Shown here: positions 42,427 to 63,904 of the stretch, piece by piece
Position numbering within the stretch: position 1 is the first letter of the stretch
Layout: each line of letters starts with the position of its first letter
Assembly: GCA_963842945.1 (NCBI GenBank)
Contig: CAWJIM010000002.1
Span: 32,001-96,000, forward strand
Direction of reading: 5' to 3'
Length of the DNA stretch: 64,000 nt
Origin: an uncultured Gemmatimonadales bacterium
Lineage (GTDB): Bacteria; Gemmatimonadota; Gemmatimonadetes; Gemmatimonadales; GWC2-71-9
Position numbers and translations under genes: made by a program
The notes under the pieces: model-generated
What the model saw: the letters and a program-made list of their open reading frames with translations, nothing else
The model's database searches: none
Told to the model about the DNA's origin: nothing

Positions 42427-42446
42427 AGGTGGTTTCGAGAAGCGAG

Positions 42447-44695: not shown

Positions 44696-44902
44696 CTACA
44701 AAGCGATGCCGATCGGAAACAGGACGCAATAACCGAAGACCAGGATCACCGCAGCTGCGCTAGGGTGACCGGCTCGAAGTGTCAGATACCCGATTACCAG
44801 CACGAGAACCGCCAGCGCCAGGATGATGAGGTTTCGTGGGGCCAGCACGAAATGCCTGGGCGGAGCCTGCCCCGGACGGGTGGAAGGGCGAGGATTCGAC
44901 AT
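44696..44902 (-). CDS. Small two-TM membrane protein (DUF3098-like)
   Basis: RNLIILALAVLVLVIGY...SAAAVILVFGYCVLFPIGI. Confidence 0.65.
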   Translation of the reverse strand: MSNPRPSTRPGQAPPRHFVLAPRNLIILALAVLVLVIGYLTLRAGHPSAAAVILVFGYCVLFPIGIAL

Positions 44903-44918
44903 ATTGAGGATGAGGCTA

Positions 44919-45834
44919 CTACGGTTCCCGGGTTCGGTCAAGTTCAGACGTGGCTGCGTCTTCCGGTGGAATCTCCCATCCTTCATCGAGCGCGGCCCGG
45001 CGCGGCAGGTCGGCAGCGCGACGGCGGCGCAGCAGGATCCAGAGGACCAGCGTGAGGACCCCCCACCCTCCCCCGGCCAGGATCCAGTTGGCCAGGCTGT
45101 ACCGCTGGCGAAGGCTTCGGCGCCATTCGACATCGAATTGAGGGACGGTTAGCCCGGTCGTGCGCTGCACAGCAATCTCGAAGTCCTGGCCCGCTCTAAG
45201 GAGGTCCAGCAGTGGAGTGAGCGAACGGGTGGGATTTCGGCGCGCGAGCTCGGTGACGGCCGAGGCCGCCAGGGCGTACGCGGCATCCGCCGTTGAGGCA
45301 GAGCCTCGAAGCGCCCCATCCAGACCGGGAAGATCGGGCACCGCTCCCCGGACCACGGCCAGGTTCAACTCGAGGCTACCCAGCCGCTCCCATTCGCCCG
45401 CTGCCCAGGCCGCATACCCCTCATCAAACCAGAGCGGGACTCTGACCCGTACAGCCTCATGAAGGGCCAGATGGGCCAGCTCGTGCCGCAAGGTTCGGTA
45501 GACGTCTCCCAGATCGGCCCGAAGGAGCACGATGCGCTCCCCCGGCAACGCCACCGCTGCGCCCCAGCCCGGCGCCCGGCCGGCAGAAAGAGAGTCGAGG
45601 CGTCGTGCATCGGGTACCACAATCAGCCGAAGGGGTCCGGGACTGCGGCGCCCCAGGCCGGGCCACTCAGTTGGCTCGGCCGCCCGGCGAGCGAGATCGG
45701 TAGCCAGCCGCAACTGCTCGGGCCAGGCCACAGCAGTAACGGGTCCAACCCGGATAGCTGTCGGTGGGTTCTGCGCGGGCGTGCCCGCCAGGATACTGAG
45801 TAGGACTAGGAGAGCGGACTGCGCGGGACTTCAC
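44919..45834 (-). CDS. Exported zinc metallopeptidase (peptidase MA-like) with a C-terminal TM (frameshift ~45815)
   Basis: HELAH followed by PLWFDEGYA (gluzincin pattern); hydrophobic signal segment in frame upstream of the ORF; GGAG-GTG start at 45834. Confidence 0.8.
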
Positions 45835-46672
45835 CTCCGGCCGATGCAACCTCCAACATTTCCTGACACCGCTTGGCCCAGGGATTGAACTTGTTGGCTT
45901 TGTATCCGTCGGTCCAGACTCGAACGGCGCCTTCCCGCTCTCCGCCCAGCCAGAGAGCGCGACCCAGCTCGAAATAGGCCTCGATGAGGTTGGGGCCGAG
46001 CTTCAGAGTCTTGCGGAGAAAGGTCTGGGCATCTTCGTACATCTCCCGCTCCAGGTACACCAGACCGAGATAATAGTGAGCGTACAAGGTGGCCTTGCGG
46101 TCATTGTCCAGTCGAATGGCTTTGGACAGATGCTCGATGGCCTCCCCGAAGATCCCTTTCTTGAGACAAATATATCCGACGTTGATCCGGGCGAGCGCGT
46201 TGGCCGGTTCCTTCATCAGAACTTTGGAGAAGTTTCCCAGTGCCTCATCGTAGTTCTCGTTCAGCATCTGTGCCCAGCCCAGGAGCGATGTCGCGTGGAC
46301 CGCGCCGGGCGAAAGCGCCAGGGCCTTTTCCAGAGCCTGAATGGCACCACCATAATCGCCCAATGAGATCAGGCTCCAGCCCTTCTCGATATAGGTCGAG
46401 GCCCCCAGGTGGTCGGCGTGAACTGCGGGCCGCTCGCCGGTAAACTGTGGAGCCGCCGTGGCGTCGGCTCCGTTTGCCGTTTGCTTGTAGCGCTCGACCA
46501 GCTCCCGAATGCCTTCCTTGATCTGCCCCAGGTCCGTCAGGGCGCCGTCCACCCGCTTGAACAGAGAGATGATGTCCTTCTTCAGAGTATCCCGTTCACC
46601 ACCCGGTGCGTCCAGGCGGGCGGCCATTTCCGTCAGCTCCGCCTTGAAGGCGGTGAGCCAGGCTTGGGCCAT
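45806..46672 (-). CDS. Coiled-coil plus TPR protein
   Basis: N-terminal heptad segment followed by about five TPRs. Confidence 0.85.
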   Translation of the reverse strand: MAQAWLTAFKAELTEMAARLDAPGGERDTLKKDIISLFKRVDGALTDLGQIKEGIRELVERYKQTANGADATAAPQFTGERPAVHADHLGASTYIEKGWSLISLGDYGGAIQALEKALALSPGAVHATSLLGWAQMLNENYDEALGNFSKVLMKEPANALARINVGYICLKKGIFGEAIEHLSKAIRLDNDRKATLYAHYYLGLVYLEREMYEDAQTFLRKTLKLGPNLIEAYFELGRALWLGGEREGAVRVWTDGYKANKFNPWAKRCQEMLEVASAGGEVPRSPLS

Positions 46673-47137
46673 CTACGCCGCCCCGAGCTCGCTCAGCGCC
46701 AACCGCTCGCTGGAGGAGAGCAGCTTGCGGGCGTTGAGCAGGATGATGGTGCGCTCCGGCCGGGAGATAATTCCGGAGATGTACGCCGCTGCCAGGCCAC
46801 TCACCACCGGGCCGGGCGGCGCGATGGCAGTACTGTCCACCCGCAGCACCTCGCGCACCTCATCTACCAGCACGGCCACCCGCTGCTTCTCCAGCTCCAG
46901 CACCATGACCCGCGTTTCCTCCCGTATCGGTGCATCCAGCTCGAAGCGTTTGCGCAAGTCAATTACGGGTACGGCGGTGTCGCCGTACGGCATCACGCCT
47001 TCGAGGAACTGGGGTGCCTTGGGGAGCGGAGACGGGGGTGAGTAGCGGAGAATACGCTCCACCTGCAGGATGTCGAAGGCGAATTCCTGGCGTCCCACCC
47101 TGAAGGTTACTACCTGCACATCGTCGCCAGTGTTCAT
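46673..47137 (-). CDS. cheW: CheW coupling protein
   Basis: VVTFRVG.QEFA..I..V.RI, PKAPQFLEGV and PVIDLRKRF. Confidence 0.92.
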   Translation of the reverse strand: MNTGDDVQVVTFRVGRQEFAFDILQVERILRYSPPSPLPKAPQFLEGVMPYGDTAVPVIDLRKRFELDAPIREETRVMVLELEKQRVAVLVDEVREVLRVDSTAIAPPGPVVSGLAAAYISGIISRPERTIILLNARKLLSSSERLALSELGAA

Positions 47138-47565
47138 GATGCAGAGGCCTCCGTCAAACGTGAGCTCAGCGCGGGCAAGTCGAGCAGCGGCACCAATGTT
47201 TCCGCATGGCGCGCCACTCCCACAGCCCAGGGCAGCGTCTCCCCAGGGGGAACCGGCAGCGCCCGCTCCCGAACCAGCACCTCTGCCTCGTCCACCTCGA
47301 GACAGACGCGGCGGCCGGCAATGTTCACCACTACCCCGACATTTCCAGAGCCGACCGGAGTCGGCCGGCCTTCCAGCAGTGACGCGAGGTGAACCAGCGG
47401 CAGCATGCGGCCATGAAGCGCGACCAGGCCGCGGACGGCGGCCTCCCTGACCGGTACAGGATGGACCTCACTCAATTGGATTACCTCCACCACCTGCTCG
47501 ACCAGGAGGCCTACGCGGCGTTGGCCGACGCGAACCAGAAGAAATCCGCTTGTACGTGCACTCAT
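47134..47565 (-). CDS. cheW: CheW-like protein
   Basis: [34 protein letters not shown] and LLDL. Confidence 0.85.
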
Positions 47566-48638
47566 TGATGCTTCAACCGGTACAGCTCGGTGGCAATGCG
47601 GTCCGCCATCTGGGCCATGGGCACGACGTACTGAGCTCCTCCGGCGTGGAACGCCGCCCCCGGCATACCATAGATGGTGGCGCTCTCCCGATCCTGAGCC
47701 ATTCCAGTTCCCCCGGCGTCACGAATCTGCCTCAGGCCTTCTGCTCCATCCCGACCGATTCCGGTCAGCACCACGCCGATCGCTCGTGGTCCAAACACCC
47801 GGGCCACGCTTCCGAAGGTGGGATCGGCGGCTGGACGGACGCCCCAGACCGGTGGCTCCTGATCCAGGGCGAGACAGAGCCCGCCGGCTGCTGGACTCAC
47901 CCGCATGTGAAAACCGCCCGGCGCCACATAGGCGGTGTCGGCCAGCAGCGGCATACGGTCTTCTGCTTCGACCACCCTGCAGCGACTCTGTGCGGCCAAC
48001 CGCTCGGCCAGGCTTCTGGTGAACTTGGGCGGCATATGCTGCACGATCAGAATGGCCGCTCCCTGGCCAACCGGCAGGTGAGGCACCAGGAGAGACAAGG
48101 CGCGGGGCCCCCCGGTCGATGCCGCGATGGCCACACACAGTCTTGCCTCACCAGGGGCTTCGACCGCCTGGCCGGCAGGCCAAGTCGGCGGTGGCGCCGC
48201 TGCCTGAGTCAATCGCTTGATGTCGGCGGTCCGGGCGGCGCGCAGGACCGTGATGAGCCGGTCGGCGAAGCGGGCGTTGGCGGCCACACCGCGATCGTCC
48301 TCTTTGACCACCAGATCGATGGCACCCAACTCGAGCGCGCGGATCGCAGCCGAGGCGCCCGGCCCGACGTGAGCGCTGACCACGACGATGGGCCGCGGTG
48401 ACTCCGCCATGATGTACCCGATCGCGCCGAGCCCGTCGACTTCCGGCATTTCCAGATCCATCAGCACGAGGTCTGGAGCGTGCGCCCGAACCTTCCGTAG
48501 CGCATCCATGCCATCGCGCGCGGTGGCCACGACCCGGAACTCGCCGGACCCCTCTACCACGTCGGTGAGAAGTCGCCGGAAGAATGGACTATCGTCCACC
48601 ACGAGGACCCGGCCGGGATCAGAGGTGCCGGACGCCAT
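47562..48638 (-). CDS. cheB: Chemotaxis methylesterase CheB (REC plus catalytic domain)
   Basis: [30 protein letters not shown] and IYGMP; Ser-His-Asp triad present. Confidence 0.95.
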
Positions 48639-49107
48639 GCGCCACCGTGCTCACCTCGACCAGGCCATCGGCCACCCGCAGCCGCACCGTTCGGCCGAAA
48701 TCGCCTCCAACAGCTTCCCCAACCAACGGCAGGTTGTGCGACATGAGTGCCTGGCGCGTCGCGGCCAGATTGCGCTCGCCCATCTGAATGGTGCCGGGCG
48801 GAGCCAGTGCCGCGAACATGCTGGCGCCTCCGGCCAACCGGGCCGTGATGCGCCGGGGCTGAGCTCCCTTGGCCGACATCAGGTGCAGCAGCCGGGGTAC
48901 AGCTGATTGAGGGAACCGGGCCGGATTGCCGTCATCCCGGGCCAACGCCGGCGAGGGGAGAAGCACGTGCGCCAATCCGCCCACCCTGGCCTCGGCGTCG
49001 TGCAGAACGATGGCGACGCAGCTCCCCAGTCCGACCGTCAGGAGCGTGTCCTCCCCTTGCCCGACGCCCAGATCCGCTACCCGGACCACCACCTCACGGC
49101 CGCTCAC
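48619..49107 (-). CDS. cheD: Chemoreceptor glutamine deamidase CheD
   Basis: [28 protein letters not shown] and [11 protein letters not shown] start at 49107. Confidence 0.95.
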
Positions 49108-49925
49108 GCTGCCCGCCGGTAGATTCGCTCGCGCGCGTCCAACAGTGTCAGCAGGTCTCGGGCTCGTCCCGACAGCGATTCCACCTTGCCCAGAACCAGG
49201 AACCCTCCGGGCGCCAGCGCCTCGGCAAAGTCGAGAAAGACCCGCTCCTGCATGGCTCGGCCGAAGTAGATGACCACATTCCGGCAGAAAATCAGCTGAT
49301 AACTGCGTCGAGGAGCCGGATCGATGCAAAGATCGGAGGCCCGAACCACCACCCTGCGACGGACCCGCTCGATCACCCGGTACTCGGAACCCCGCTCTTC
49401 GAAGTACCGGCGGGCCAGCGACGCCGGCACGTCAGCGAGAGCCTCGCGGGGATATCGAGCTTCGTGCGCCCGGGCCAGACACTGGGCGTCGACGTCGGTC
49501 GCGTCCACCGTCACCCGATCGAGGTGCTCTCCTCTGCCCTGCTGATCCAGGAATTCGGCCATCAGCGTGGCGAGGGTGTACGCTTCTTCCCCGGAGGAGC
49601 ACCCTGCACTCCATGCCCGCACCGCGGACCAAGTTCCGCTGAACAGTTCGGGGAGGACTCGATTGCGCACCAGATTCCAGGTTTCGGCGTTGCGATAAAA
49701 GCTGGTGACGTTGATCGTGATCGTGGCCTTGAGCCGGGCAGCTTCCGCGGAATCCCGCTCGAGCAGCTCCTGGTATTCCCCGTAGCTCTGTACCCCGCAC
49801 GCGCGCATGCGAACCGCTATGCGCCGCCGGAGACACTTGTCCTTGTAGCCATCGAGCGAGAGCCCGGTGTGGCGGGAGATCCTGCCGATCAGGTCGAGAA
49901 ATGCTTCCTCATCCGGCGGCGTCAT
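49104..49925 (-). CDS. cheR: Chemotaxis methyltransferase CheR
   Basis: YKDKCLRRRI, INVTSFYRN, WSAGCSSGEE, ATDVD and CRNVVIYF. Confidence 0.95.
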   Translation of the reverse strand: MTPPDEEAFLDLIGRISRHTGLSLDGYKDKCLRRRIAVRMRACGVQSYGEYQELLERDSAEAARLKATITINVTSFYRNAETWNLVRNRVLPELFSGTWSAVRAWSAGCSSGEEAYTLATLMAEFLDQQGRGEHLDRVTVDATDVDAQCLARAHEARYPREALADVPASLARRYFEERGSEYRVIERVRRRVVVRASDLCIDPAPRRSYQLIFCRNVVIYFGRAMQERVFLDFAEALAPGGFLVLGKVESLSGRARDLLTLLDARERIYRRAA

Positions 49926-51539
49926 CGGGAGAGGTCCAGCATTTCCAGGTTGGCCCGAGCCAGCTGATGCCCCGGATTGAGCGCGGTGGCCTGGGCCCAG
50001 CTTTCCCGGGCTCGCGCCAGATCGCGCCGTTTGTAGGCGATGTTCCCCAGCTTGAAATAGAGGTCGTCTCCGAGCCCGGGGTTCAGCTTGGCCGCCCGTT
50101 CGTAGGCCTCGCCCGCTTCGTCGTAGCGTCCGGTGCGGTAGAGAATGTCGCCCAGGTTCTTGGAGACCTGCGGCAGTGCGGCATCTTCCGCCAGGGCGGA
50201 GCGAAGCATCGCCTCAGCCGCCTGCGTATCACCGCTGGCCTCCAGGAGCACGGCCAGATTGTTCTGGAGAACCGGATTGTTCGGGTAGGCCTCGACCCCC
50301 TGCCGGGCGATCCGCAAAGCGTTTTCCGTATCGTCCTGTCCGACCGCCGCCAGAGGCGGCCGCCCAATACCACAGCGCCGGCACCGGCTTCCCCTGCATC
50401 AGCTCGCAGGCCTGGGCCAGGCGCGACTGGGCCACCTTGTTGTCTCCCCGCTTCAGTGCCACGATGCTCCAGCCCAGCATGATCCGGGCGTCGTCCTTGG
50501 CTCGCCCGGCGGCGTCTCCGTAGGCCGCCTCGGCCTCATCCAACCGGCCCAGCTGCTCCAGCGCAAAGCCGAGATTATGCAGAGCAGCCGGCCGGGGAAC
50601 TCCGGCTTCGGCCGCCTGACGTAGCGCCAGAGCGGCCTCGTCCCAGCACGCCTGGCGGATGGCGATCAAACCCAGGAACAACGGGGCTCGGCTGTCGGCC
50701 GGACGCAGCTCGACCACCCGCCTGAACTCCCGCAAGGCCTCCTCCAGCATGCCTGCCTTGTAGAACGCAATCCCCAGGTTCCGGTGCTCGTCGACTCGGT
50801 TATCGTTGACCTTTGGAGGCGCCGCCTTGGAGGTTCCCGTCCGATGAGCAAACCCGGCGGTGATCAGACCGAACAGCGCCTTCCCGACCTCGAATTCCAC
50901 CAGCCCGGATGCATCGATCAATTGCCGCACATCGCGGGTCCCGTCGACCAACGGGAGCAGACGCCGCTGCTCGGCGGACAGCGTGGGTCCTGACTCTGCG
51001 ATGTGGTGCTGGTCGACCGAAAAGATCAGATCGAAAGAGGGGATCTTCTTCTCGATCAGGCTCCATTCATCGACCCGACGGGCCCCTTCCAACAGCAGGG
51101 CCTCGGGACTGATTCGAACCAGAAAGTCTTCCCGCTCCGGTTTCACGCCGGCCTCGAAGTTGAAAGTCCCCGAGGTCCAGGTGAACAGGTAGTACACCGC
51201 CTCTTCGATCTGGAGGCGTATGTAGTCCTCCAGCTCGGCCCGGGTCAGCATGCCGAGCCCTACCAGTATTTCTCCCAGCTTGTGCTGCCGGTCTTCGTCC
51301 TGAGCATCGATCGCCTGCTGCAGCTGCGCGGCACTGATGCGCCCCTTGCGAAGCAGGATATCGCCCAGCCGGTCCCGCCGATTGACGATGGAGGCGTAGA
51401 CGATCTGCCCCTCGTCGAGGTAGATCGTGCCGAAATTGTGCTGATCGGCGAGGGCCAGACAGCCGGTCCGCCGGCCGAGGAAGAGCAGCTGGATGACATC
51501 CGGGAGACTGGCCTCCTTGAGGCTGCCTTTGATGGCCAT
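49922..51539 (-). CDS. DUF4388 (PATAN) + MshEN-like + TPR protein (frameshift ~50340)
   Basis: [35 protein letters not shown] and LLLEGARRVDEW; TPRs continue in ORF 49922..50317. Confidence 0.88.
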
Positions 51540-53536
51540 CAGCGCCACTCCTCGATGATGCGCTCACCGACATCAGGCCAGTCCCAAACTATTTTCTCCC
51601 GGCTCTTGAGTCCGCCGGCGACTGCCACCACTCCGCTTGACCGGGTGGAGGACTTCCGGGGTGGTTTGGGTTGCGCTCCCTCGAGCACTTCTCGAGCCAA
51701 AGTCACCGTTGGCGGGCCACCCTGCGCCTCAGCGGCGTTGAGGATTCGCTGAAGCAGGCCGTGCACCGCTCTGATGGACTCTACCGGACGCGAGCCGACA
51801 TAAGCCGCCAACTCGGGATCGACTGTGCCCACCTTGGCCTGCAGCGAACGCTCGACCACCTGCTGGCGAACTTCCCGTTCCGGAGGCGGCAAATCCACCA
51901 CCAGCCCGCCCTCGAGCCGGGTTCGGAGGCGGCCCTCCACGGCCTTCATTTCCGCCAGTGGCACCGCGGACGTGAAGACCATCTGCCGGCCGGATTCGAT
52001 CAGGAAGTTGAACAGGACGAACAGCTCATCCTGGGTTCGATCCTTCTCGGCGACGAGATGGACATCGTCCAACAGAAAGGCCGCGGCACCGCGGTACCGT
52101 GCCCGCCACGCCGGGACGGCGTCGCGATCGATGGCCTCGATCAGCTCTCCGGTGAGCTCATGGGCGCTGAGGCAGGCCACCGGGCCCTTTAACCGCGTTG
52201 CCAAAGCATTCCCCAGAGCGTGCAGCAGGTGCGTCTTGCCCACCCCACTCGCGCCAACAATGACAAGAGGGTTGTAACGACGGGCTGGTTCCCCGGCGAT
52301 GGCCCGAGCGGCCTGCAGCGCCATGCGATTGCCAGGGCTCTCGAAGAGGTCGTCGAGCCGCCAGATCGGAAGCGGAGCCGGCGGGGGATGCGCGCCCTCG
52401 CGGGCACGTTGGGTAACCGCCTCCGCGCCCGCGATGTCCTCCGGATCGCGAAAGGCGCTGGAGCCGGCCAGCGATGGAGCCAGCTCCGAGGCCTCGGCGT
52501 GAAGCGCCTGGAGCCGGCGCACGTCGGACTCGAACTGGCGCAGCACCTCCTCCGGATCCGTGGTCATCTCCCGCTGCAGCAACGTGTCGAGCCGCGCGGT
52601 ACTGAATCCTTCTCCTTCCCATCGGAGAATTGCCGCTGCCACCTTGGTTCGCCACGAATCCACCTGCTGGGCCACCGTGGCGGAGACCTCCGACAGAAAA
52701 TCGCTGAACTCGTCGATACCCTCCGCCTCTGCTTCCTCCTCTGGCTTCTCTGGCTTCTCTGTCTTCTCGACGTCTCCCGCCAGCTTCCCGGTCTTCCGCG
52801 GTTGCTCCTCAACCCGTTCTGCTCCCCCGGCGAGCGCCCGAGCCTGAGCCGGCTTGAGGGGAGTATCACTCACCGCCTGAAAGGCGACCAGCCGATTGAG
52901 CGCGCCGAGCAACTCACGCACGTTGTCGATCACCAGCGATCCTACCGCCTCGAGCACACCCTCACCAAACCTGGCACGCCGTTCCTCCGCTTTCCGCCGG
53001 AGAATGGCCACCCGGGTCTCATAGTCAGGAGCCGCGATATCGATCACCAGGCCGCCGGCAAAGCGGCGGATGAGCCGCTCGTCGAGCGCCTCAATCTCGG
53101 CCGGCGGACGGTCGCTAGTGAGCACGATTTGACGATTGGTGGTCTGCAAGGCGTCACTGAGCCTGAGCAGCTCAGCCTGCATCTCCCGGCGGTGGGTCAG
53201 GAACTGCACATCGTCGACCAGGAGCAGATCGACGTCACTGAACCGGCGGCGGTAGGCCTCACCCTGCCCTGCCGCCACGGCCGCATGGAAGGACTCAACG
53301 AACTCGTCCAGTGTGAGGTATTCGACCGTCAGCCTGGGGTTGATCGCGCGGGCAGCATGCCCGAGGCCCATCAAGAGATGGGTCTTGCCCAGCCCGGGAC
53401 GGGCATAAATAAAGAGCGGGTTGTACACCGTGCCCGGAGATTCCGCGACTGCCTTGGCGGCGGTGAATGCCAAGCGATTGGCCGCACCCACGACCAGCGT
53501 GTCGAAGCGGTAGAGCGGGTTGAGCGTAGCGGTCAC
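51539..53536 (-). CDS. Tandem DnaA/Hda-type AAA+ ATPase-domain protein lacking DnaA domains I and IV
   Basis: Two copies of ..V.G/SPG.NR.A, YNPL, Walker A ([18 protein letters not shown]), Walker B ([14 protein letters not shown]) and RL..R..GGL. Confidence 0.88.
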
Positions 53537-54135: not shown

Positions 54136-54138
54136 TCG

Positions 54139-55792: not shown

Positions 55793-56822
55793 GATAGCTC
55801 TCCAGCTCTTCTGCCAGGATTTCCGCTGCTTGTCTCAAGCGCTCAACCTCGGGCGCGAGCGCCTCTTCCGCAGGCGTCCGCGTGCCCAGGCGGGACCAGC
55901 TCTTCCAGGTCTCCGCTGCGCCACGAAAACGTCCGAGGGCCGCCTGACACAGACCCATCAGGCGTCGCGCCTCCGGCATCAGCGGATCCGCCCGAAGAAC
56001 CTCCTGGACCGCCTGGGCAGCCTTTTCGAATTGTCCCTTGGCCAATGCTTCACGCACGGGGAGAAGCGGCGTGTTGTGGTCCTTGCCGTTTTGCCCCGCT
56101 GATCCGGCATCCAGTACTACCACTCCTGCTTCAGCCAGGGTGTAGATGGTGCGGGCCACATCGAACTCGGACTTGCCCAAGAGGTCGGCCAGCGTTTGGA
56201 GGTCCCGCAAGCCGTCGACCGCCGCCAGCACTTCCCATTGGAACGGAAGCAGATCCAGCTTGCCCTTTGCCGCTGAATCCGGTGGTGGCAGCTTGGGCAC
56301 GACCCGCAGGTGAGGCAGCTTGTCTTCCATCCGGGACCACTCGTCCGAGCGCCGGGCGGATTCCATCAGCAGCCCTTCGGTCGGGATCCGGAGTGGGGCC
56401 TCGACCAACGCCTCCGATTCGGCCGATTCCTCGAAGCGGAAGTGTCCCTCGGTCCAGCCCAGCAGGTCGAGGATCGTTTCCTCGATCTGAGCCTTCAATT
56501 GTCGGTCGAGCTCCCGGCGGTTGATCGCGCCATTCGCCACCAGGATGTCCCCCAGACGGCGGGTATCTCCCTTCTCCTGCTGGACGAGTGCCCGATCCAG
56601 ATCCTTTGCCGAGATCTTGCCGAGGCGCACCAGCCGAGTCCCGAAGCGCTGCGGGTTCTTTCCCATGCTGGCTGCGACAACGCCGCCCCGGTCGAACGTG
56701 ACCGATGCCGCGGTCTGGCGCAGCTCGGAGGTGACGCGCAAGACCCCGTTCTTCCGGCCCAAATCGAGCAGCTGAAAGACGTCCTGGATATGGAATTCCT
56801 TCAGCGGACCTTCGAGCGCCAT
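55785..56822 (-). CDS. DUF4388 (PATAN) + MshEN-like + TPR protein
   Basis: MALEGPLKEFHIQDVFQLL..RKNGVL, LLGWTEGHFRF and LLMESARRSDEW; C-terminal TPR. Confidence 0.88.
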   Translation of the reverse strand: MALEGPLKEFHIQDVFQLLDLGRKNGVLRVTSELRQTAASVTFDRGGVVAASMGKNPQRFGTRLVRLGKISAKDLDRALVQQEKGDTRRLGDILVANGAINRRELDRQLKAQIEETILDLLGWTEGHFRFEESAESEALVEAPLRIPTEGLLMESARRSDEWSRMEDKLPHLRVVPKLPPPDSAAKGKLDLLPFQWEVLAAVDGLRDLQTLADLLGKSEFDVARTIYTLAEAGVVVLDAGSAGQNGKDHNTPLLPVREALAKGQFEKAAQAVQEVLRADPLMPEARRLMGLCQAALGRFRGAAETWKSWSRLGTRTPAEEALAPEVERLRQAAEILAEELESYRE

Positions 56823-56825
56823 GTC

Positions 56826-59594
56826 TCAGCTTGCCCCGGCAAAGATGTGCTGGAGGTCGCGGGCAGATCGGGCCCGGCTCCGGGCCTCGGTGGCGAAAGG
56901 TCCATCCGGGTCCAGCTCGATTACCCGCTCCCATACTTGAACCGCCTGGTCGAACTGACGTTGGCGGGCAAAGCCGGTACCCTGGTGGTACAGCGCTGCC
57001 GGGTGGTCAGGATCGAAACGGAGCACCCGCGCGAAGGCCTCGAGGGCCTGGACCGTTCGCCCATCCTCTAGCAAGGCGTGGCCCAGCGCCGTCAGCGCCT
57101 CCAGCTCATAAGGATCGGCTTCCAGGACCTGGACCAACACTGGAATGGCGGCCTGGGCCGATTCCGTCCGGCGAATGAGGTCGGCCAGCGGGAGTGCGGC
57201 CGGGGCGTAGGTGGGCAGCAGGTCGAGCGCCCGCTCGTAGGCGGCCCGGGCGGAGGTCCAGTTATGCTGTTCCTCCTCCAGCCCGCCCAGCTCGCACCAG
57301 ACTCGAACCAGAGAAGGATCCAGTTGAAGCGCCGATTGGAAGGCGGTGAGCGCACCGGTCCTATCACCCAGTCGGGCCGAGGCTTGGGCCTGGAGATGAA
57401 AGAGGTCGGCTTGACCGGGCGCGATCGACTGCGCCTTCCGAACTGTCTCGAGCGCACCGGCGGCATCGCCGACGGCAAGTCTCACCCGGGCCCTGGTTCC
57501 CAGAACAGCCGGATCGGCCGGGGCTCGTGACGCGAGCTCATCAGCCAGGGGAGCGGCCTCGGCGCCGCGACCCAGCGACAGTAGCGCCCTGATTTCTCCG
57601 AGCAGCGCCCCGGTGTGCGCTTTAGCAAGAATCCGCGCCTCGCGGTAGCGCTCCAGCGCCTCGCCATAAAGGCCACGGCGAGCGAAGATGTCGCCCAGAA
57701 GCACCGTGGTAGGCGCGGTAGGGGCACCCCGGGCCATGGCACGATTGAGCTCGCCCGAGGCCTGGTCGAGCAAACCCCTGGCGATGAGATCACGGGCTAC
57801 GTTCAGCGATTCTTCGGCGGGCCCGGCCCGGGGAGTTGGGGTGGTGGCCGGGGCGAGCTCCTCGAACAACCGGTCCAGCACCGGGGACTCGAAGCTGAAT
57901 TCCCCGGCCAGCTCTTCGCCACTCACATCGGCCACCAGCTCGGGTGCGATGGCTATAGTCGGATCTTCGTACTGGAGATCGATGGTCAGCGCAAACTTCT
58001 GCGGGACATAGAGCGGCTCGAGCTCGAGCGCACGCTTGGTCTCCCGCAACGCACCATCGAAGTCGCCCAGCTGACTCAGCACAAAGCTCAGGTTGTAGTG
58101 CGCTGGGGCGAAGTCGCTGTCCAGATCCACCGCCCGCCCAAAGGCGTTGCGGGCGTCCTCGAACCGTTTCATCTCCACCAGCACCAGTCCCACACCGTTC
58201 CAACCGATGGCACTGGCCGGCTGCTCCGCCAGCGCACGCTGGTACTCCTCCAGCGCGGACTTGTACTGCCGCTGCTGAAAGAGCAGCAGAGCCAGGTTGA
58301 GCCGCGCGGTGAGCAGCGGGTGGTCACCAGTGAGTGCTTTGCGGAACGCGCTGACGGCTTTGTCGTTCCCAGTCTCACTGGACCGAATGACGCCTAGATT
58401 GTTCCAGGCCAGCTGATAAGCGGCATCGATGGCGACGGCCTTTTCATAGGAGGCGATGGCCTCCTTCCGTCGGCCCGACTGGTGCAGGCAGACGCCGCGC
58501 TCGTTCCAGAGCTTGGGCGAATCGGCGTGTTCCTTCACGAGGTCGTCGTAGAGCTTCAGCGCCGCGGTGAGGTCGCGCCGCAGAATGTGAACCTCGGCCA
58601 TGGCCTGGAGGTTGAGCCGGCGGTCTTCCCCGGCGTCGAGCGCGAGCTGGTACTCTCGCAATGAATCGTCGTGGTAGCCCTGCTGTCGAAGGGCCAGACC
58701 CAGGTTGTAGTGCGCCAGGAGAGAGCCGGGAACGGAAAGCGGGCCAGCCGGGCGGCCGGGCAGCGGGGCAGATTGCGCCGGGGTCGATTGCGCAGTTTCG
58801 CCCGAACCAGGGTGTGCACGCTGGCTGCGTCTCGAGCCCGACTCTTCCTCACTGCCCCGCCGCCCCACCGCCCCGCTGCCGAGCGCCAGATTCGCCTGCG
58901 CCCGCCCGAGCATGGGGTTCAGCTCGAGAGCCCGCTTGGTTGCCGCGCGAGCGGCCTCGGGCTGACCCAGCTCGCCGTACACGAAGGCGAGCAGATAGTG
59001 CGCTTCGGCGTAGTCCGGATTGCGAGCTACCGCCTCTTTCAGTGAGACCAGCGCCAGTTCGGTCAGGCCCCGATTGTAGAGCACCTCGCCCCGATGAAAC
59101 CGGGCCACCGGATTCTCCGGCTCCTGGTCACAGGCTCGGGCCAGCCAGTCACTCGCTGCGTCGAGCCGGCCTCGCGCCTTTTCCGCCAGTCCGAGCTGGA
59201 GCATGGCGGGGACGTCGTCGGGGTGATTCGCCAGAAGTTGCTGGAACTCGATGATGGCGTCTTCATGGCGGCCCAGCATGGCATAGGCTCGGCCCAATTC
59301 CCAGCGCGATTCGCGAGCCGTGGGGGCGCGTTGGACCCGCTGTTTCAGCTCTCCGATCTTGCGATCGTAGTGCCCGCTCTCCCGATAGGCGATCTCCAGG
59401 TTGGTCTGCGCCACCTGCATTTTGGGATCGAGCTCCAGGGCGCGCGCGAACTCTGCGATCGCTTCCTCGATCAGGCCTTTCTGGTAATACAGGACACCGA
59501 GGTTGTTGTGGGCGCCGGCATCGGAGGGATCGATCCGGGAGGCGAAGGATCGAAGCACGGTGAGATCGCGCTCCGAGAGCGCGGGAGCCGGCAT
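56826..59594 (-). CDS. Large cytoplasmic multi-TPR protein (922 aa)
   Basis: Roughly 20 TPRs (AHNNLG, AHYNLG, AWNNLG); no signal peptide or catalytic domain seen. Confidence 0.9.
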   Translation of the reverse strand: MPAPALSERDLTVLRSFASRIDPSDAGAHNNLGVLYYQKGLIEEAIAEFARALELDPKMQVAQTNLEIAYRESGHYDRKIGELKQRVQRAPTARESRWELGRAYAMLGRHEDAIIEFQQLLANHPDDVPAMLQLGLAEKARGRLDAASDWLARACDQEPENPVARFHRGEVLYNRGLTELALVSLKEAVARNPDYAEAHYLLAFVYGELGQPEAARAATKRALELNPMLGRAQANLALGSGAVGRRGSEEESGSRRSQRAHPGSGETAQSTPAQSAPLPGRPAGPLSVPGSLLAHYNLGLALRQQGYHDDSLREYQLALDAGEDRRLNLQAMAEVHILRRDLTAALKLYDDLVKEHADSPKLWNERGVCLHQSGRRKEAIASYEKAVAIDAAYQLAWNNLGVIRSSETGNDKAVSAFRKALTGDHPLLTARLNLALLLFQQRQYKSALEEYQRALAEQPASAIGWNGVGLVLVEMKRFEDARNAFGRAVDLDSDFAPAHYNLSFVLSQLGDFDGALRETKRALELEPLYVPQKFALTIDLQYEDPTIAIAPELVADVSGEELAGEFSFESPVLDRLFEELAPATTPTPRAGPAEESLNVARDLIARGLLDQASGELNRAMARGAPTAPTTVLLGDIFARRGLYGEALERYREARILAKAHTGALLGEIRALLSLGRGAEAAPLADELASRAPADPAVLGTRARVRLAVGDAAGALETVRKAQSIAPGQADLFHLQAQASARLGDRTGALTAFQSALQLDPSLVRVWCELGGLEEEQHNWTSARAAYERALDLLPTYAPAALPLADLIRRTESAQAAIPVLVQVLEADPYELEALTALGHALLEDGRTVQALEAFARVLRFDPDHPAALYHQGTGFARQRQFDQAVQVWERVIELDPDGPFATEARSRARSARDLQHIFAGAS

Positions 59595-59598
59595 GGCG

Positions 59599-60216
59599 CT
59601 ATGGCAGGCGAATGGCGTCGAAAATGGCCCGCAGCGACGACATATCGGGCAGCAGCAGGAAATGGCCCCCCAGCGTGTCCGCGGCTCCCTCCACTTTGAA
59701 GGTGGTCTCTACGCAAAAGGCGTAGTCCCGCTCATGCCCGAAATTGAGCTGCGCCGTGGTGAGAACCGCTCCACTTAGATCGATGACGAGGCTGGGTACT
59801 GACGGGATCAGCATCATGCCCATGAAATCGCTCAGCGCATTCAGATAGGCGCTGGCGAGGATGTTTCCCGTTTCCTTGAGTCCGGATTGCTCCATCTCGC
59901 CCAGCTCCTTGGTGGTGCCCACGGGCCGACGAAACAGGAAGTCACACACGGTGTAGGCGGACTTCTCGGGAAAGAGCACCAACGCCCGGCCGGTCAGGTC
60001 GCCCATCATATGCATGAGCACCGCGGCAACCACCGCGTCGGCCGCGCCGACCAGGTCACACGCTTCTTCCAGCGGGCGCACAAACACGCGTGGCACGGTG
60101 ATCATGATGGTGCGGTTGGTCATGCCGGAGAGCGCGGTGGCAGCGTGGCCGGCGCCGATATTGGCCACCTCGCGAATGGCGTCGAGCTGTGACTCCTTCA
60201 GGTCACGGACTTCCAT
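59599..60216 (-). CDS. cheC: CheY-P phosphatase CheC
   Basis: Two D/S-x3-E-x2-N sites: DAIREVANIG and SGLKETGNIL. Confidence 0.94.
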   Translation of the reverse strand: MEVRDLKESQLDAIREVANIGAGHAATALSGMTNRTIMITVPRVFVRPLEEACDLVGAADAVVAAVLMHMMGDLTGRALVLFPEKSAYTVCDFLFRRPVGTTKELGEMEQSGLKETGNILASAYLNALSDFMGMMLIPSVPSLVIDLSGAVLTTAQLNFGHERDYAFCVETTFKVEGAADTLGGHFLLLPDMSSLRAIFDAIRLP

Positions 60217-60225
60217 GCGGGCCTC

Positions 60226-62088
60226 CTAGAGGAGCGCCGCTGCGTCGAGGATCAACGCAGGCGCCCCATCGGCGAGAATAGTCGCGCCGCCCACGAACGA
60301 CGGGAGCCCCCGGGGGGCGTCGAACGGCTCGACCACGATGTCTTGTTGCCCTACCAGAGCATCGACTACGAGCGCGGCGCGGCGCTCGCCCACTTCCAGG
60401 ATCACCGTAGGCCGGCGGTTCGACCTAGACCCCGCCCGGGCCGCGATCAGGTCACGCAAGTGAACCGTCGGTATCACCCGGTCCCGTACCACCAATGCCT
60501 CGCGATCGCGCAGCGCCGTCACCATCGCACGGTCGAAGTCCACCGTCTCGGCGACATAGGCCAGCGGCACGGCGTACCGTTCGCCACCGGCCTCGGTCAG
60601 CAATGCGCGGACAATGGCAAGGGTGAGCGGAACGCGGATCAGAAACGTGGTCCCCCGCCCCAGCTCGCTGCGCACCTCGAGGGTTCCGCCGAGCGCACGG
60701 ACCCGGCTCATCGCCACGTCCACACCCACGCCACGACCGGAAACACCACTCACCTGCTGAGCGGTGCTGAATCCCGGTCGCGCCAGCACCCGAACCAGGA
60801 GATCGTCGGGCAGCGTATCCGTCTCGGGCGCCAGCCCCTCGCGTCGAGCCTTGGCCAGGACCTTGTCCCGGTCGATGCCGCGGCCGTCATCCGTGACCCT
60901 GATCGCCACCGTGTTCCGCTCCCGTGAGGCCGAGACCAGAATGCGACCTTCGGCCAGCTTACCGGAGGCCAGCCGCTCGGCGGGAGACTCGAGCCCGTGA
61001 TCCGCCGCGTTCCGGATCAGGTGCACCAGAGGCTCACCGATCTCGTCCAGGATCGACCGGTCCAGCTCGATTTCGTCGCCTTCCGTATCGAAGCGGATCT
61101 GCTTGCCCAGATCCCGCGAAAGGTCACGCACCAGGCGAGGAAACCGCTCGAATACCTCACCTACCGGGGTCATGCGGGAGGCGAGCACCTCGCCCTGCAT
61201 ACTGGAAACGAGGCGGTTGACCCTCTCGCTCACTTCCATGAGGACGGGATCGCGGGACTCCGTGGCTAGTGCACCGAGGCGGTTCTTCGCCACGACCAGC
61301 TCGCCGACCTGCTTCATCAGCAGATCGAGCCGGCGCAGATCCACCCGAATTTGCCGGTTTGCTCCCGGCTGCGAATCCACAGTGGCCGCAACCGCCTCGA
61401 CGATCTCCATGGTCTCCACGTCGCCGACAGCACGCAGCGCGGCGATGATCTCGGGATCGGACGACCGGGTCTGCAGCCGGAAGGAGAAGCGGCCGTCGAA
61501 ATCATCCCGCTCGAATTCGACTAGTGGGGGACGGATCGTGCTCACCGCGCCCAAGGTCTCGGCCCGCCGGAGCACCAGGGCTGCTCGAGCCCCCCGCATG
61601 ACCGCACCAGGACGAATGGTCACCTGAATCGGTCGAGAGCGAGGAGCATCGGTAATGCGCCGGGCCGGAGGTGAAGTCTCCCCTGCCACTGCCGGAGGGT
61701 TGGCGGGGCGATCTGCTTCGGCTGCACGATCCAGCTCAACCAGTAGCGCCGCATCCGGGGCTTCTTCTGCCCCTGCGGCGGCGGCTTCCACGGACTTCCC
61801 CAGCGTGTCAATCGCGCGGAAGAGCAATTGGAAGACTGCCGAGCTGCCCTGCAGGCGGCCCCCCCGAAGCCCATCGAGCAGATTCTCGATCCCATGAGCC
61901 AGCTGGGCCACGGCCGAGTAGCCCATAGTCGCAGCCATGCCCTTGATCGTGTGGATCGCCCGGAAGAGCCGATCCACCGGCTCGAGTGCGGACGGCGCCT
62001 TTTCCCACTCGAGCAAAGAGCTGTTGCAGGCTTTGAGATGCTCGCGGCTTTCCGCAACAAACAGGCTGGCGTACTTGGAGAGGTCCAT
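60226..62088 (-). CDS. cheA: Chemotaxis histidine kinase CheA (Hpt-P2-dimerisation-HATPase-CheW)
   Basis: FRAIHTIKGMA, HLIRNAADHG, DDGRG, SGRGVGVDV and PLTLAI. Confidence 0.97.
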   Translation of the reverse strand: MDLSKYASLFVAESREHLKACNSSLLEWEKAPSALEPVDRLFRAIHTIKGMAATMGYSAVAQLAHGIENLLDGLRGGRLQGSSAVFQLLFRAIDTLGKSVEAAAAGAEEAPDAALLVELDRAAEADRPANPPAVAGETSPPARRITDAPRSRPIQVTIRPGAVMRGARAALVLRRAETLGAVSTIRPPLVEFERDDFDGRFSFRLQTRSSDPEIIAALRAVGDVETMEIVEAVAATVDSQPGANRQIRVDLRRLDLLMKQVGELVVAKNRLGALATESRDPVLMEVSERVNRLVSSMQGEVLASRMTPVGEVFERFPRLVRDLSRDLGKQIRFDTEGDEIELDRSILDEIGEPLVHLIRNAADHGLESPAERLASGKLAEGRILVSASRERNTVAIRVTDDGRGIDRDKVLAKARREGLAPETDTLPDDLLVRVLARPGFSTAQQVSGVSGRGVGVDVAMSRVRALGGTLEVRSELGRGTTFLIRVPLTLAIVRALLTEAGGERYAVPLAYVAETVDFDRAMVTALRDREALVVRDRVIPTVHLRDLIAARAGSRSNRRPTVILEVGERRAALVVDALVGQQDIVVEPFDAPRGLPSFVGGATILADGAPALILDAAALL

Positions 62089-62091
62089 GGA

Positions 62092-62454
62092 TTACGCCAG
62101 GACGCGCTGTACCGCCTCGAGGACACGGGAGGGCTGGAAGGGCTTCACCACGAAATCCTTGGCACCGGCCTGGATCGCTTCGACGACGAGGGCCTGCTGC
62201 CCCATGGCGCTGCACATCAGGATCTTGGCCTCGGGGTCTGACTTGCAGATCTCCCGCACCGCCTCGATGCCGCCCATGTCGGGCATCACGATGTCCATGG
62301 TGACGAGATCGGGCTTGAGCTCGCGATACTTCGCGACCGCCTGTAACCCGGACTCGGCCTCGCCCACTACCTCGAAGCCCGCCTGGCTCAGGATGTCGCT
62401 GATCATCGTGCGCATGAAGATGGCGTCGTCGCAGACGAGCACGGTGTGGTTCAC
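62092..62454 (-). CDS. cheY: CheY response regulator (DifD/Firmicutes-type)
   Basis: DDAIFMR, TMDIVMP, CSAMGQ and DFVVKPF. Confidence 0.95.
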   Translation of the reverse strand: MNHTVLVCDDAIFMRTMISDILSQAGFEVVGEAESGLQAVAKYRELKPDLVTMDIVMPDMGGIEAVREICKSDPEAKILMCSAMGQQALVVEAIQAGAKDFVVKPFQPSRVLEAVQRVLA

Positions 62455-62466
62455 GGAACTCCTCCT

Positions 62467-62904
62467 TTAGCTTCCGATGATCGGCGCGAATACGGCATCA
62501 ACATCGAGCAGAATGAAGTGCCGGTTCGACTCCAGTCCTACCGCCTTGACCAACCGGGGATCGACCCCAGGGAGCTCCTGCCGCTCCACCACGGAGGCAG
62601 CGGGCACTTCGAGGAAATCCAGCACCTGGCCGACCCCAAGCCCGTAAGCCTTCCCTCTGACTTCGAGCACGACAATGGCGCCCTCGTCGGACAGTCGCCG
62701 CTCCTGTTGCAGGAGCATGTGCCCGTCGAGAACTGTCAGCAGGCTTCCTCGAACGTTGACCAGCCCTTCGACTGCGTCCGCCACCCCAGGAATGCGGGTG
62801 GCTGGGAGCCGGGGGAGGATCTCACGCACGATCCCTGCCGGGGCCGCGCAGACAATCTCACCGATTCGAAAAATGACGGCGTGAAGCGCGGAAGAGTTAG
62901 CCAT
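62467..62904 (-). CDS. cheW: CheW-like protein
   Basis: VIFRIG, VREIL, TRIPG and EGLVNVRG; ATG 62904 overlaps the rluD end. Confidence 0.88.
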   Translation of the reverse strand: MANSSALHAVIFRIGEIVCAAPAGIVREILPRLPATRIPGVADAVEGLVNVRGSLLTVLDGHMLLQQERRLSDEGAIVVLEVRGKAYGLGVGQVLDFLEVPAASVVERQELPGVDPRLVKAVGLESNRHFILLDVDAVFAPIIGS

Positions 62905-63904
62905 CTCTATTGAAGAAACGAAGATAGCGGAGCGGGTCTGACCGATCAACCAGTTCTTTGCCACCAGCCAGAGCGAGTGCTGGACGTAAGTCGTCAGGCC
63001 ATTCGGCCGCGAACTCAAGTGGTGCTCCGCTCACAGGATGGCGGAATGCCAGAGCGGCCGCGTGCAGCGCTTGCCGCGGAGTGGTGCGGCCAAGCAGGTC
63101 GGCATTGCGCCGTTGCGCGCCGGAGATCCGCCGGCTCCCGCCTCCGCTGTAGATCGGATCGCCGACCACGGGGTGTCCCACATGCTCCAGATGCACTCTG
63201 ATCTGATGGGTTCGGCCGGTGTGCAGCTCCAGCCGAAGCAGATCGACCACATCGAATCGGGCGACCACGAAGGCGTCGGTGCGGGCGGCGCGGCCGTTGG
63301 CTACGATCGCCATGCGCTTCCGATCCTGGGGGTGCCGCGCCACGGGAGCCTCAATGACCAGAGGGCTGGAGTCGAGGTGTCCCCAGGCCAGGGCGGCATA
63401 GGTCCGGCGAACCCGTCGGGCGGCGATCGCAGCCCCCAGGCGCCGGTGCGCCAGATCAGTCTTCGCCACCAGCATCAAACCCGAGGTGTCACGATCCAGC
63501 CGGTGAACGATGCCGGGCCGGCCCTCGGCGCCTCCGGCCAGGGTTGTTCCCCGCGCGACCAGCGCGTTGACCAGAGTGTCGTCCCAGTGGCCTGGGGCCG
63601 GATGCACCACCAGCCCGGCCGGCTTGTCGATCACTGCCAGGTGCTCGTCTTCGAAGATGATGCTGAGCGGGATTGCGCGAGGCAGGAGCGTCCGCGGGGG
63701 TTCGGACTCAGGAAGGCGCACGGTCACGGTCTCACCCCGGGAGAGCAGCCGGGACGCCCGCGCGATTTTCCCTTCGACGCTGACCCGTTTTCCGGCGATC
63801 AGCCGGGCTGCCTGGGTTCTGGAGAATCCGAGCTGATCGCCGAGGAAGCGATCCAAACGCTCGGTTTGAGAGCTGAGAACAGTGAACGAGATTTCGTCAC
63901 TCAC
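62897..63904 (-). CDS. rluD: RluA/RluD-family pseudouridine synthase
   Basis: S4 domain, KPAGLVVHP, HRLDRDTSG, TGRTHQIRVH and RQALHA; GTG start at 63904. Confidence 0.93.
   Translation of the reverse strand: MSDEISFTVLSSQTERLDRFLGDQLGFSRTQAARLIAGKRVSVEGKIARASRLLSRGETVTVRLPESEPPRTLLPRAIPLSIIFEDEHLAVIDKPAGLVVHPAPGHWDDTLVNALVARGTTLAGGAEGRPGIVHRLDRDTSGLMLVAKTDLAHRRLGAAIAARRVRRTYAALAWGHLDSSPLVIEAPVARHPQDRKRMAIVANGRAARTDAFVVARFDVVDLLRLELHTGRTHQIRVHLEHVGHPVVGDPIYSGGGSRRISGAQRRNADLLGRTTPRQALHAAALAFRHPVSGAPLEFAAEWPDDLRPALALAGGKELVDRSDPLRYLRFFNRDG

Follow-up and report, generated by a model that had tools for sequence, protein, structure and literature searches.

We analysed a 64,000-nucleotide (nt) stretch of DNA (hereafter the window; G000:C2:32001-96000, where G000 is the source genome) from a soil Gemmatimonadota bacterium whose assembly comprises 4.3 Mb in 24 contigs and is 86.9% complete. 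Its proteins have near-identical public counterparts that carry the name Gemmatimonadales. Window positions 44696-63904 hold 21 minus-strand genes that run in one direction and whose ends overlap or nearly abut. As judged from gene content and order, this string is a conserved, operon-like array of Gemmatimonadota, in which a complete chemosensory (Che) pathway is joined genetically to a module of the polarity GTPase MglA and to a pair consisting of a DnaA-derived ATPase and a protein with PATAN and TPR domains (PATAN-TPR-2). The array is far beyond chance because its order recurs in every related locus fetched. We give slightly better than even odds (roughly 0.55) to the reading that Che signalling acts on the MglA polarity module, with an additional arm of cyclic di-GMP (c-di-GMP) input and ATPase, and that the output is probably type IV pili.

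Gene order and conservation of the array

The gene identities were determined by Pfam and NCBIfam searches of the window proteins. Every gene named in an earlier, sequence-only reading of this DNA was recovered, in the order given there and on the minus strand throughout. Two corrections were made to its gene list: PATAN-TPR-2 is frameshifted, and the string ends with a small gene for a protein with two transmembrane (TM) helices. The tight packing described there was also confirmed. Among the 19 junctions from rluD to the gene of a 288-amino-acid (aa) TPR protein (TPR288), 11 are overlaps of 1-20 nt, and gaps measure 12 nt at most. At the module borders, a gap of 4 nt separates cheC from the gene of a 922-aa TPR protein (TPR922), and overlaps of 4 nt were found both between mglA and the ATPase gene and between PATAN-TPR-2 and cheR. 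The features are as follows, in window coordinates; ORF denotes an open reading frame.

62897-63904, minus strand: rluD, flanking gene (TIGR00005 265 bits, cut-off 192.7; PF00849 and S4)
62467-62904, minus strand: cheW-1, 145 aa from the ATG at ORF codon 39 (PF01584 75.7 bits)
62092-62454, minus strand: cheY, single-domain response regulator (PF00072 108.5 bits; identity to relatives 79-93%)
60226-62088, minus strand: cheA, Hpt-P2-dimerisation-HATPase-CheW (five Pfam domains above their cut-offs)
59599-60216, minus strand: cheC, CheY-P phosphatase family (PF04509 71 bits; CheC_Thtogales 160.5 bits, below its cut-off)
56826-59594, minus strand: TPR922, TPR over its whole length, candidate scaffold or effector (TPR_2 254.6 bits, 12 stretches)
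55785-56822, minus strand: PATAN (DUF4388)-TPR protein 1 (PF14332 102.3 bits, cut-off 25; NF053729 43.3 bits, cut-off 38)
54944-55792, minus strand: TPR-Roadblock/LC7 fusion (TPR_2 47.5 bits; PF03259 26.9 bits, cut-off 23)
54600-54947, minus strand: Roadblock/LC7 protein (PF03259 47.6 bits)
54139-54600, minus strand: MglB-like Roadblock protein, candidate GTPase-activating protein of the adjacent MglA (6izw/6h5b, E 7e-10; NF052242 35 bits, below its cut-off)
53533-54135, minus strand: mglA, MglA-family small GTPase (Myxococcus xanthus MglA 5ymx/6h17, E 1.4e-72)
51539-53536, minus strand: tandem DnaA-domain-III AAA+ ATPase, 665 aa (PF00308 300.5 bits, 2 stretches)
49922-51548, minus strand: PATAN-TPR-2, frameshifted (PF14332 126.1 bits, cut-off 25; NF053729 47.1 bits, cut-off 38)
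49104-49925, minus strand: cheR, methyltransferase (PF01739 159.1 bits and PF03705)
48619-49107, minus strand: cheD, deamidase, GTG start at ORF codon 75, start overlapping the cheR stop (PF03975 83.4 bits)
47562-48638, minus strand: cheB, methylesterase with a receiver domain (PF01339 206.9 bits and PF00072; NF001965 350.3 bits, cut-off 293)
47134-47565, minus strand: cheW-2 (PF01584 66.2 bits)
46673-47137, minus strand: cheW-3 (PF01584 119.1 bits)
45806-46672, minus strand: TPR288 (TPR_2 89 bits; identity to relatives 46-75%)
44919-45731, minus strand: MA-clan metallopeptidase, HELAH at residue 83, C-terminal TM helix (PF13485 35.9 bits, cut-off 32.4)
44696-44902, minus strand: small protein of about 68 aa with two hydrophobic (TM) helices (seven relatives have versions of 62-79 aa)
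44549-44624, minus strand: tRNA-Val (ARAGORN), downstream boundary of the array

Related loci were sought in one genome per species, using a 10-sequence alignment of the double ATPase as the query, and 80 loci were obtained. Seventy of these were ordinary dnaA genes (matches of about 660-820 nt) and were dropped. The ten retained loci (L001-L010) come from nine Gemmatimonadota metagenome-assembled genomes (MAGs) and one MAG labelled Acidimicrobiia, and the gene order is preserved in all ten as far as the contigs extend; the exceptions are L004, which lacks the two distal cheW genes and the peptidase gene, and L002, which has one distal cheW. The order is also preserved in four of four complete genomes of genus g58 and in five of five genomes of families f2, f4, f5, and f8, which were picked by their cluster-type MglA and have a complete array whose ATPase is shorter or more diverged. 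Altogether the order holds in 20 of the 20 related loci examined, from several Gemmatimonadota families, one genome (G224) keeping the ATPase/PATAN core only, and it persists down to about 33-45% protein identity across families. The sequence-only reading had proposed a lineage-conserved system that carries no mobility genes, and the synteny search that it called for across Gemmatimonadota agrees with that proposal. The Acidimicrobiia-labelled MAG (L006; CAXMUQ010000073.1) contains a full Gemmatimonadota-type array and may be mis-binned.

We also counted the two marker proteins in 401 sampled genomes of the phylum. At E<=1e-90, the cluster-type ATPase was found in 213 genomes (f1, 160/166; f2, 46/93; f3, 5/5; other families, 1/136), a cut-off that under-counts, as shorter or more diverged ATPases occur in f2, f4, f5, and f8. 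At E<=1e-30, MglA was found in 315 genomes: every genome of f1 (166), f2 (93), f3 (5), f4 (7), f5 (2), and f8 (4), 34 of 70 in f7, 3 of 30 in f6, and none of 23 in f9-f12. Genomes flagged as unpublished are included in both tallies (G057, G182, and G157) or in the MglA tally (G097); none of their loci or sequences was used.

In regards to G224, which belongs to another family, the locus (L085, G224:C1:4533304-4553283) consists only of rluD, the ATPase gene, PATAN-TPR-2, and the peptidase gene, without che genes and cluster mglA. Neither a CheW domain nor FliM was found anywhere in that genome. The ATPase and PATAN-TPR-2 genes adjoin in every locus, G224 included. The sequence-only reading had described the che set as split in two by an inserted module. 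This description may not hold, as the gene content of G224 suggests that the ATPase/PATAN pair may be the older core, around which the che and MglA genes gathered or from which they disappeared.

A different explanation of the shared order is that the modules are merely juxtaposed and functionally separate, being neighbours because the region from ileS-lspA-rluD to the tRNAs and mraW is syntenic in the lineage, with no signalling between them. The conserved places of rluD, a downstream 640-aa TPR gene, and mraW in the same loci favour this explanation, as do the G224 core, the ordinary mglB-mglA pair found elsewhere in the genome, and the g58 copies, which gave no cheR, Roadblock, or MglB-like matches with the window proteins as queries (E<=1e-6). 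However, the che set flanks the other genes on both sides, start and stop codons overlap across the module borders, and G224 lacks both che halves and the MglA block together. Furthermore, CheY has no flagellar target in the source genome, and the order is kept at low protein identity. We regard separate modules as unlikely.

Upstream of the array lie ileS, a dksA-like gene, and lspA, of which only the last ~100 nt fall inside the window; the lspA stop at 63901 abuts the rluD start, in agreement with the position behind lspA-rluD stated in the sequence-only reading, and the rluD stop overlaps the cheW-1 start by 8 nt. Start candidates were compared for two genes: relatives align from residue 1 of the 145-aa form of cheW-1 and from about residue 1-8 of cheD. 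TPR922 is collinear among relatives (identity 33-70%). TPR288 abuts cheW-3 with zero gap, and the metallopeptidase gene follows TPR288 after 74 nt, with HExxH retained in eight of eight relatives checked. The last gene of the string was corrected from the ORF 44696-45133 to the gene of about 68 aa at 44696-44902, the C-terminal half of which is common to the seven relatives; its product matched no Pfam family. Beyond tRNA-Val come a TPR gene, tRNA-Asp, and then mraW. The TPR gene encodes the 640-aa protein (42581-44503, between tRNA-Asp at 42446-42521 and tRNA-Val at 44549-44624) that separates the array from mraW; it gave a weak FlgO-like match (E 0.0013) and occupies the same place in relatives (identity 24-41%).

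A scan for promoters and terminators gave four promoter-like sites against 2.1 expected and five terminator-like sites against 9.7 expected, and no usable operon borders. In the rhizosphere RNA library X1 (share 0.06, contigs only), 63 contigs were aligned, 9 at >=99%, 17 at 95-99%, and 37 at 90-95%. Short near-identical contigs bridge cheW-3/TPR288 and cheD/cheB, and others lie in cheR, PATAN-TPR-2, the ATPase gene, and TPR922. DNA carry-over is possible in this library, contigs can show neither transcription nor a single transcript, and uncovered bins carry no information. Contig joints with sides of 21-33 nt at 90% likeness were taken as other organisms or repeats.

Chemosensory genes and the MglA module

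All four CheW-domain matches of the source genome, CheA included, sit in the array, and no other CheW or CheA domain was found in that genome. No gene for a methyl-accepting chemotaxis protein (MCP) lies inside the string; the genome has three, all on other contigs and all with TM-like segments. The flagellin N-terminal domain and FliM were not found in the source genome (86.9% complete). FliM occurs in 24 of 171 genomes of the family. The four complete g58 genomes all have FliM; they contain 8-11 CheW domains at 3-4 places, the array being an additional cluster, and in one of them (G067) another che cluster lies within about 40 kb of fliM. We conclude that the array is very probably a non-flagellar system, because flagellated relatives have extra che clusters and the source genome has this sole CheA/CheW set with no flagellin or FliM found. 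The non-flagellar role put forward in the sequence-only reading is thus very likely.

The che set looks F1-like from its CheC and CheD content, which stands alongside CheA, CheW, CheY, CheR, and CheB, and from the best matches of CheA, CheY, and CheC to Thermotoga or archaeal proteins. The best solved match of CheY was Thermotoga maritima CheY (1tmy, E 1.3e-50). Among NCBIfam models, CheA most resembled CheA_Halo (413 bits, below the equivalog cut-off) and CheY most resembled CheY_Halo (below the cut-off). The set shares the genes cheA-W-Y-C-D-R-B with the F1-type systems of Thermotoga, Firmicutes, and archaea; it differs in that no flagellar or archaellar marker genes were found here and all equivalog scores are below their cut-offs. 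The likeness to F1-type systems proposed in the sequence-only reading therefore stands for gene content and best matches and not as a formal class assignment. Thermotoga and archaeal Che proteins control flagella or archaella, and these similarities would fit an ordinary flagellar chemotaxis operon with unrelated passenger genes. The flagellin and FliM results from the source genome, the other che clusters of flagellated g58 genomes, and the occurrence of FliM in 24/171 family genomes against 160/166 for the ATPase marker (the samples differ) speak against such an operon, which we consider hardly credible. A cheR paralogue (40% identical) and a CheY-like receiver were found at G000:C24:434114-434857 and C24:446374-446727, with no CheW or CheA nearby.

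The MglA of the array matched the M. xanthus structures 5ymx, 6h17, and 6hjh with E values of 1.4e-72 to 2e-72 over residues 1-197, and the Thermus thermophilus structure 3t12 with 3e-65. It equals M. xanthus MglA residue for residue across the P-loop, the 'tdrtlffdf' segment, and the 'ytvpgq' segment, where the intrinsic Arg and the Thr and Gln of the TxxGQ segment are presumably the switch residues. Identity to relatives is 57-94%. The MglB-like gene adjoins mglA as a cognate Roadblock/LC7 neighbour, ends 3 nt ahead of it, and matched solved MglB with an E value of 7e-10. A second MglA of 224 aa (G000:C2:302424-303095; L091 9998-10672, minus strand) is encoded directly after a 122-aa Roadblock gene, in the context of a dnaX-like gene, recR, mglB, mglA, and pgsA/cinA. 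By these comparisons, the genome has an ordinary mglB-mglA pair and, in addition, a dedicated second MglA paralogue in the cluster.

Both PATAN-TPR proteins exceed the cut-off of NF053729, the model of the MshE-related c-di-GMP motif, and in PATAN-TPR-2 the core of this motif (N56, R57, D59, R60, D63, and L65 in L003 numbering) is invariant in 19 of 19 orthologues. Both are therefore predicted c-di-GMP sensors, which agrees at the sequence level with the c-di-GMP input suggested earlier. In regards to the pilus machinery, the source genome encodes pilB (TIGR02538 756.9 bits, cut-off 675.65) and pilT (TIGR01420 497.8 bits, cut-off 319.1), with an adjoining PilC/GspF-family gene. The N-terminus of PilB (L093 5106-6815; G000:C19:105105-106814) carries the same MshE-related motif as both PATAN proteins (NF053729 59.5 bits). 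About 3.6 kb from pilB, past three ORFs, lies an ORF resembling SprA of the type IX secretion system translocon (196.9 bits, just below the cut-off of 200).

Among the closest known systems is Frz of M. xanthus, a Che-type pathway that acts on the MglA GTPase and its Roadblock-type regulators (the MglA/MglB(/MglC/RomR-RomX) module), with type IV pilus and gliding polarity as the output. Frz is marked by a CheA fused to a receiver domain and by a receptor gene in the operon. In the array, CheA consists of Hpt, P2, dimerisation, HATPase, and CheW domains only, with no receiver among its Pfam matches, MCPsignal matches occur on other contigs only, both CheC and CheD are encoded, and MglA is a second paralogue. 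To our knowledge, Frz has neither a DnaA-type ATPase nor a PATAN-TPR pair. TPR effectors of MglA (SgmX) are known from M. xanthus. According to a survey of MglA proteins (PMC4316618), the M. xanthus mglA is not near its signalling partners; here all lie in one string.

The same survey (Wuichet and Sogaard-Andersen 2014) reports some Group 1 and Group 5 mglA genes near PATAN genes, and its supplement lists two Group 1 MglA genes in Gemmatimonas aurantiaca T-27, namely GAU_1409 with the context 'PATAN>MglA>-PATAN>' and GAU_1115 with 'MglB>MglA>'. The two entries correspond to the two paralogues found here, and the gene lying between mglA and the second PATAN gene has no name there; CheA, CheW, and CheY are absent from the supplement text searched, and DnaA from the main text. 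A further comparison is offered by the cyanobacterial Tax/Pix systems, where Che-type genes occur with PATAN-REC proteins of the PatA type. A study of Synechocystis (10.1101/2021.06.11.447907) describes PATAN as an output domain that binds PilC as well as PilB1, the pilus extension motor, and that determines pilus polarity. In the array, PATAN is instead fused to TPR rather than to a receiver and carries the MshE-related motif, and an MglA GTPase and a DnaA-type ATPase are added.

The DnaA-like ATPase and its predicted contact with PATAN-TPR-2

The ATPase consists of a first AAA+ module (AAA-1, residues 1-238), a disordered segment (239-278), a helical linker (277-382), a second module (AAA-2, residues ~404-620), and a conserved C-terminal tail. 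AAA-1 shares 48% identity with domain III of Bacillus subtilis DnaA (8bv3; E 2.7e-55), and the Foldseek superposition gave a TM score of 0.93 and a root-mean-square deviation (rmsd) of 1.7 A. It aligns with DnaA at segments that we take to be Walker A, Walker B, sensor, and box-VII-like motifs. It is 44% identical to the genome's own dnaA candidate, a separate gene on contig C19. AAA-2 most resembles the Hda model TIGR03420.

DnaA domains I and IV were not detected in the ATPase by NCBIfam or among the 14 Pfam families matched, and TIGR00362 aligns only at profile positions 102-328 of 437. The protein was not filed as DnaA because these domains were not detected. It was likewise not taken as Hda: the TIGR03420 score is 150.2 bits against a cut-off of 194.8, and the ATPase has two modules and 665 aa. 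It differs from both DnaA and Hda in its two AAA+ modules per chain, its family-specific helical linker, and its conserved tail. Nor does it have the deviant Walker A fold of the ParA/MinD-type positioning ATPases, as fold and sequence are those of a DnaA-type AAA+ protein.

The AlphaFold2 model of the ATPase (predicted local distance difference test [pLDDT] 87.7, predicted TM score 0.51) has two confident AAA+ modules and a disordered C-terminus that ends in a short helix. With the whole model as the query, Foldseek found DnaA domain III only, apart from double-AAA proteins such as p97, on which the superposition was poor (rmsd about 15-20 A). The helical linker was folded alone (pLDDT 82.9) and compared with 48,161 chains; the best Z score, 6.3 for the cytoplasmic domain of EzrA, lies in the range of generic helical hairpins and gave no fold assignment. 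Walker A and Walker B of both modules are intact in most of the 30 aligned sequences. The short forms have no AAA-2, three g58 copies have a truncated one, and the P-loop of AAA-2 in G224 is degenerate; a single-module ATPase of 392-395 aa is typical of proteins named Longimicrobium. The C-terminal tail with its invariant Trp is retained in 30 of the 30 aligned ATPases, that of G224 included, and is more conserved than the preceding segment (0.46 against 0.24).

We chose the tail and PATAN-TPR-2 for complex prediction because their genes adjoin everywhere and the tail resembled a TPR ligand. The L003 orthologues were used, with full-length PATAN-TPR-2 (541 aa), ATPase residues 278-673, and our own alignments. 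The three runs scored 0.77, 0.77, and 0.76, and the best of three controls scored 0.00; the score mark is reached by 116 of 157 solved complexes and by 2 of 215 mismatched pairs, a calibration that is only rough with our own alignments. Agreement between the runs is 72% or more of the contacts, with a partner pLDDT of 76 or higher. In the confident part of the predicted interface, tail residues 647-673 run along the concave face of TPR repeats 286-496 of PATAN-TPR-2. Conservation is somewhat higher at the predicted contact residues than at the remaining TPR residues (0.58 against 0.47; p 0.027 in a one-sided Mann-Whitney test, the significance of which is overstated as the sequences are related). 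The models thus support binding of the ATPase tail in the TPR groove of PATAN-TPR-2, a predicted contact that is new in this analysis. The sequence-only reading had suggested that one complex may couple the components; of such a possible complex, the modelling covered one contact, that of this pair, and supported it (0.77 against 0.00).

PATAN-TPR-2 changes frame near 50346-50353 on the minus strand, and its two parts lie in ORFs at 50229-51548 (439 aa) and 49922-50317 (a 131-aa TPR ORF). The 541-aa protein of a relative aligns to one frame down to 50346 and to another frame from 50353, and the protein is a single ORF of 537-587 aa in 19 of 19 orthologues examined. The continuous ORF in relatives rules out the 131-aa ORF as a separate gene. 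In addition, ileS on the same contig is broken up into three or more ORFs that lie in different frames (L092 992-3969; G000:C2:96791-99768, just upstream of the window end). The frameshift is either an indel of the assembly or a real disruption; assembly error is likely because ileS is similarly split. A real frameshift would cut the predicted tail-binding TPR groove in two.

The resemblance of AAA-1 to DnaA raises the question of whether the ATPase acts on replication initiation or on DNA, as a co-oligomer of DnaA or by binding single-stranded DNA, so that the array couples signals to replication, budding, or division. Gemmatimonas divides by budding. The sequence identity and motif alignment of AAA-1 with B. 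subtilis DnaA, the 44% identity to the genome's own dnaA candidate, the Foldseek superposition on 8bv3, and the position of the array upstream of mraW are in line with such a role. It is opposed by the undetected domains I and IV, by the predicted partner, which is a TPR signalling protein, by the loss of AAA-2 in Longimicrobium-type forms and its degenerate P-loop in G224, and by the two tRNA genes and the TPR gene between the array and mraW. We consider a cell-cycle role quite unlikely.

The ATPase could also function like the ParA-like ATPases that che operons encode (PpfA and ParC): it would place or segregate the chemosensory or polarity complex and transmit no signal. Its gene lies inside a che operon, the models predict tethering to an adaptor by a short tail, and PpfA and ParC/ParP are known precedents. 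The fold, however, is DnaA-type AAA+ and not ParA/MinD, and G224 has the ATPase but no che gene. Moreover, nucleoid-based positioning is not obviously needed because the three MCPs look membrane-bound. This role is very unlikely in our judgement.

Proposed working and significance

In the working that we favour, the membrane chemoreceptors encoded elsewhere would assemble with the three CheW proteins and CheA. CheA would phosphorylate the single-domain CheY, CheC would reset CheY, and CheR, CheB, and CheD would adapt the receptors. Phosphorylated CheY (CheY-P) would then act on the proteins encoded between the two che halves, a target suggested because the genome has no flagellar switch. The second MglA paralogue would cycle between GTP and GDP and set a pole under the control of the MglB-like protein and the two further Roadblock proteins, with the TPR proteins as possible scaffolds or effectors of MglA. 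The two PATAN-TPR proteins would add a c-di-GMP input and, by analogy with the cyanobacterial PATAN regulators, may contact the pilus motor. The double ATPase, its tail tethered in the TPR groove of PATAN-TPR-2, would serve as an ATP-dependent switch or oligomeric platform. The most likely output would be the polarity or activity of type IVa pili, pilB, pilT, and pilC being present. What CheY acts on, what the ATPase does, and which machine is controlled are all inferred.

Several points weigh against this working. The link to pili rests on analogy and on the presence of pil genes. The housekeeping neighbours (rluD, the tRNAs, and mraW) hold their place in the same loci, and therefore conserved order alone is no proof of shared function. 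The g58 copies lack the cheR, Roadblock, and MglB-like matches sought in them, and the ATPase/PATAN-TPR-2 pair can work alone, because G224 has the pair and the peptidase without che and mglA. Within the window, PATAN-TPR-2 is frameshifted, and the cluster MglA is the more diverged paralogue (246.6 bits against M. xanthus MglA; 281.8 for the stand-alone copy over residues 1-159). TPR-peptide complexes are common among solved structures, and part of the complex score may reflect that. The RNA evidence is weak, consisting of short contigs of close relatives from one library with possible DNA carry-over.

We also considered a bolder possibility, in which the ATPase has kept the ATP-dependent self-assembly of DnaA and perhaps its grip on DNA or on DnaA. 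Docked by its tail to the c-di-GMP-sensing PATAN-TPR protein, it would form with it a novel switch that passes chemosensory, second-messenger, and MglA signals to the chromosome or the replication/division cycle, or that uses the nucleoid as a platform. This possibility is something of a long shot; if true, bacterial cell-polarity signalling would have taken over the motor of a replication initiator.

In Myxococcus, a Che pathway is already known to be functionally linked to MglA, and the adjacency of MglA and PATAN genes was catalogued in 2014 (PMC4316618). The search of the literature, from which most subscription journals were missing, yielded no account of either the array or the ATPase family, and no paper was found on the gene combination, which the sequence-only reading had likewise supposed to be uncharacterised. 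The machine that the array governs is probably one located at the cell pole, for instance type IV pili.

Almost all work on the way in which a chemosensory pathway throws a Ras-like polarity switch comes from Myxococcus, whose corresponding genes are dispersed in the genome. Here an entire phylum has every candidate component together in a single compact string, from which the likely interaction partners can be read off directly. The source organism is without a rival che system, flagellar genes were not detected in it, and complete genomes of relatives are available. The ATPase represents a family without a described function, in which the AAA+ core of DnaA is usually doubled and the DNA-recognition domains are missing. 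The coupling predicted here is concrete: the ATPase tail would occupy the TPR groove of a putative c-di-GMP sensor. Its confirmation would mean that an initiator ATPase has been re-used outside replication.

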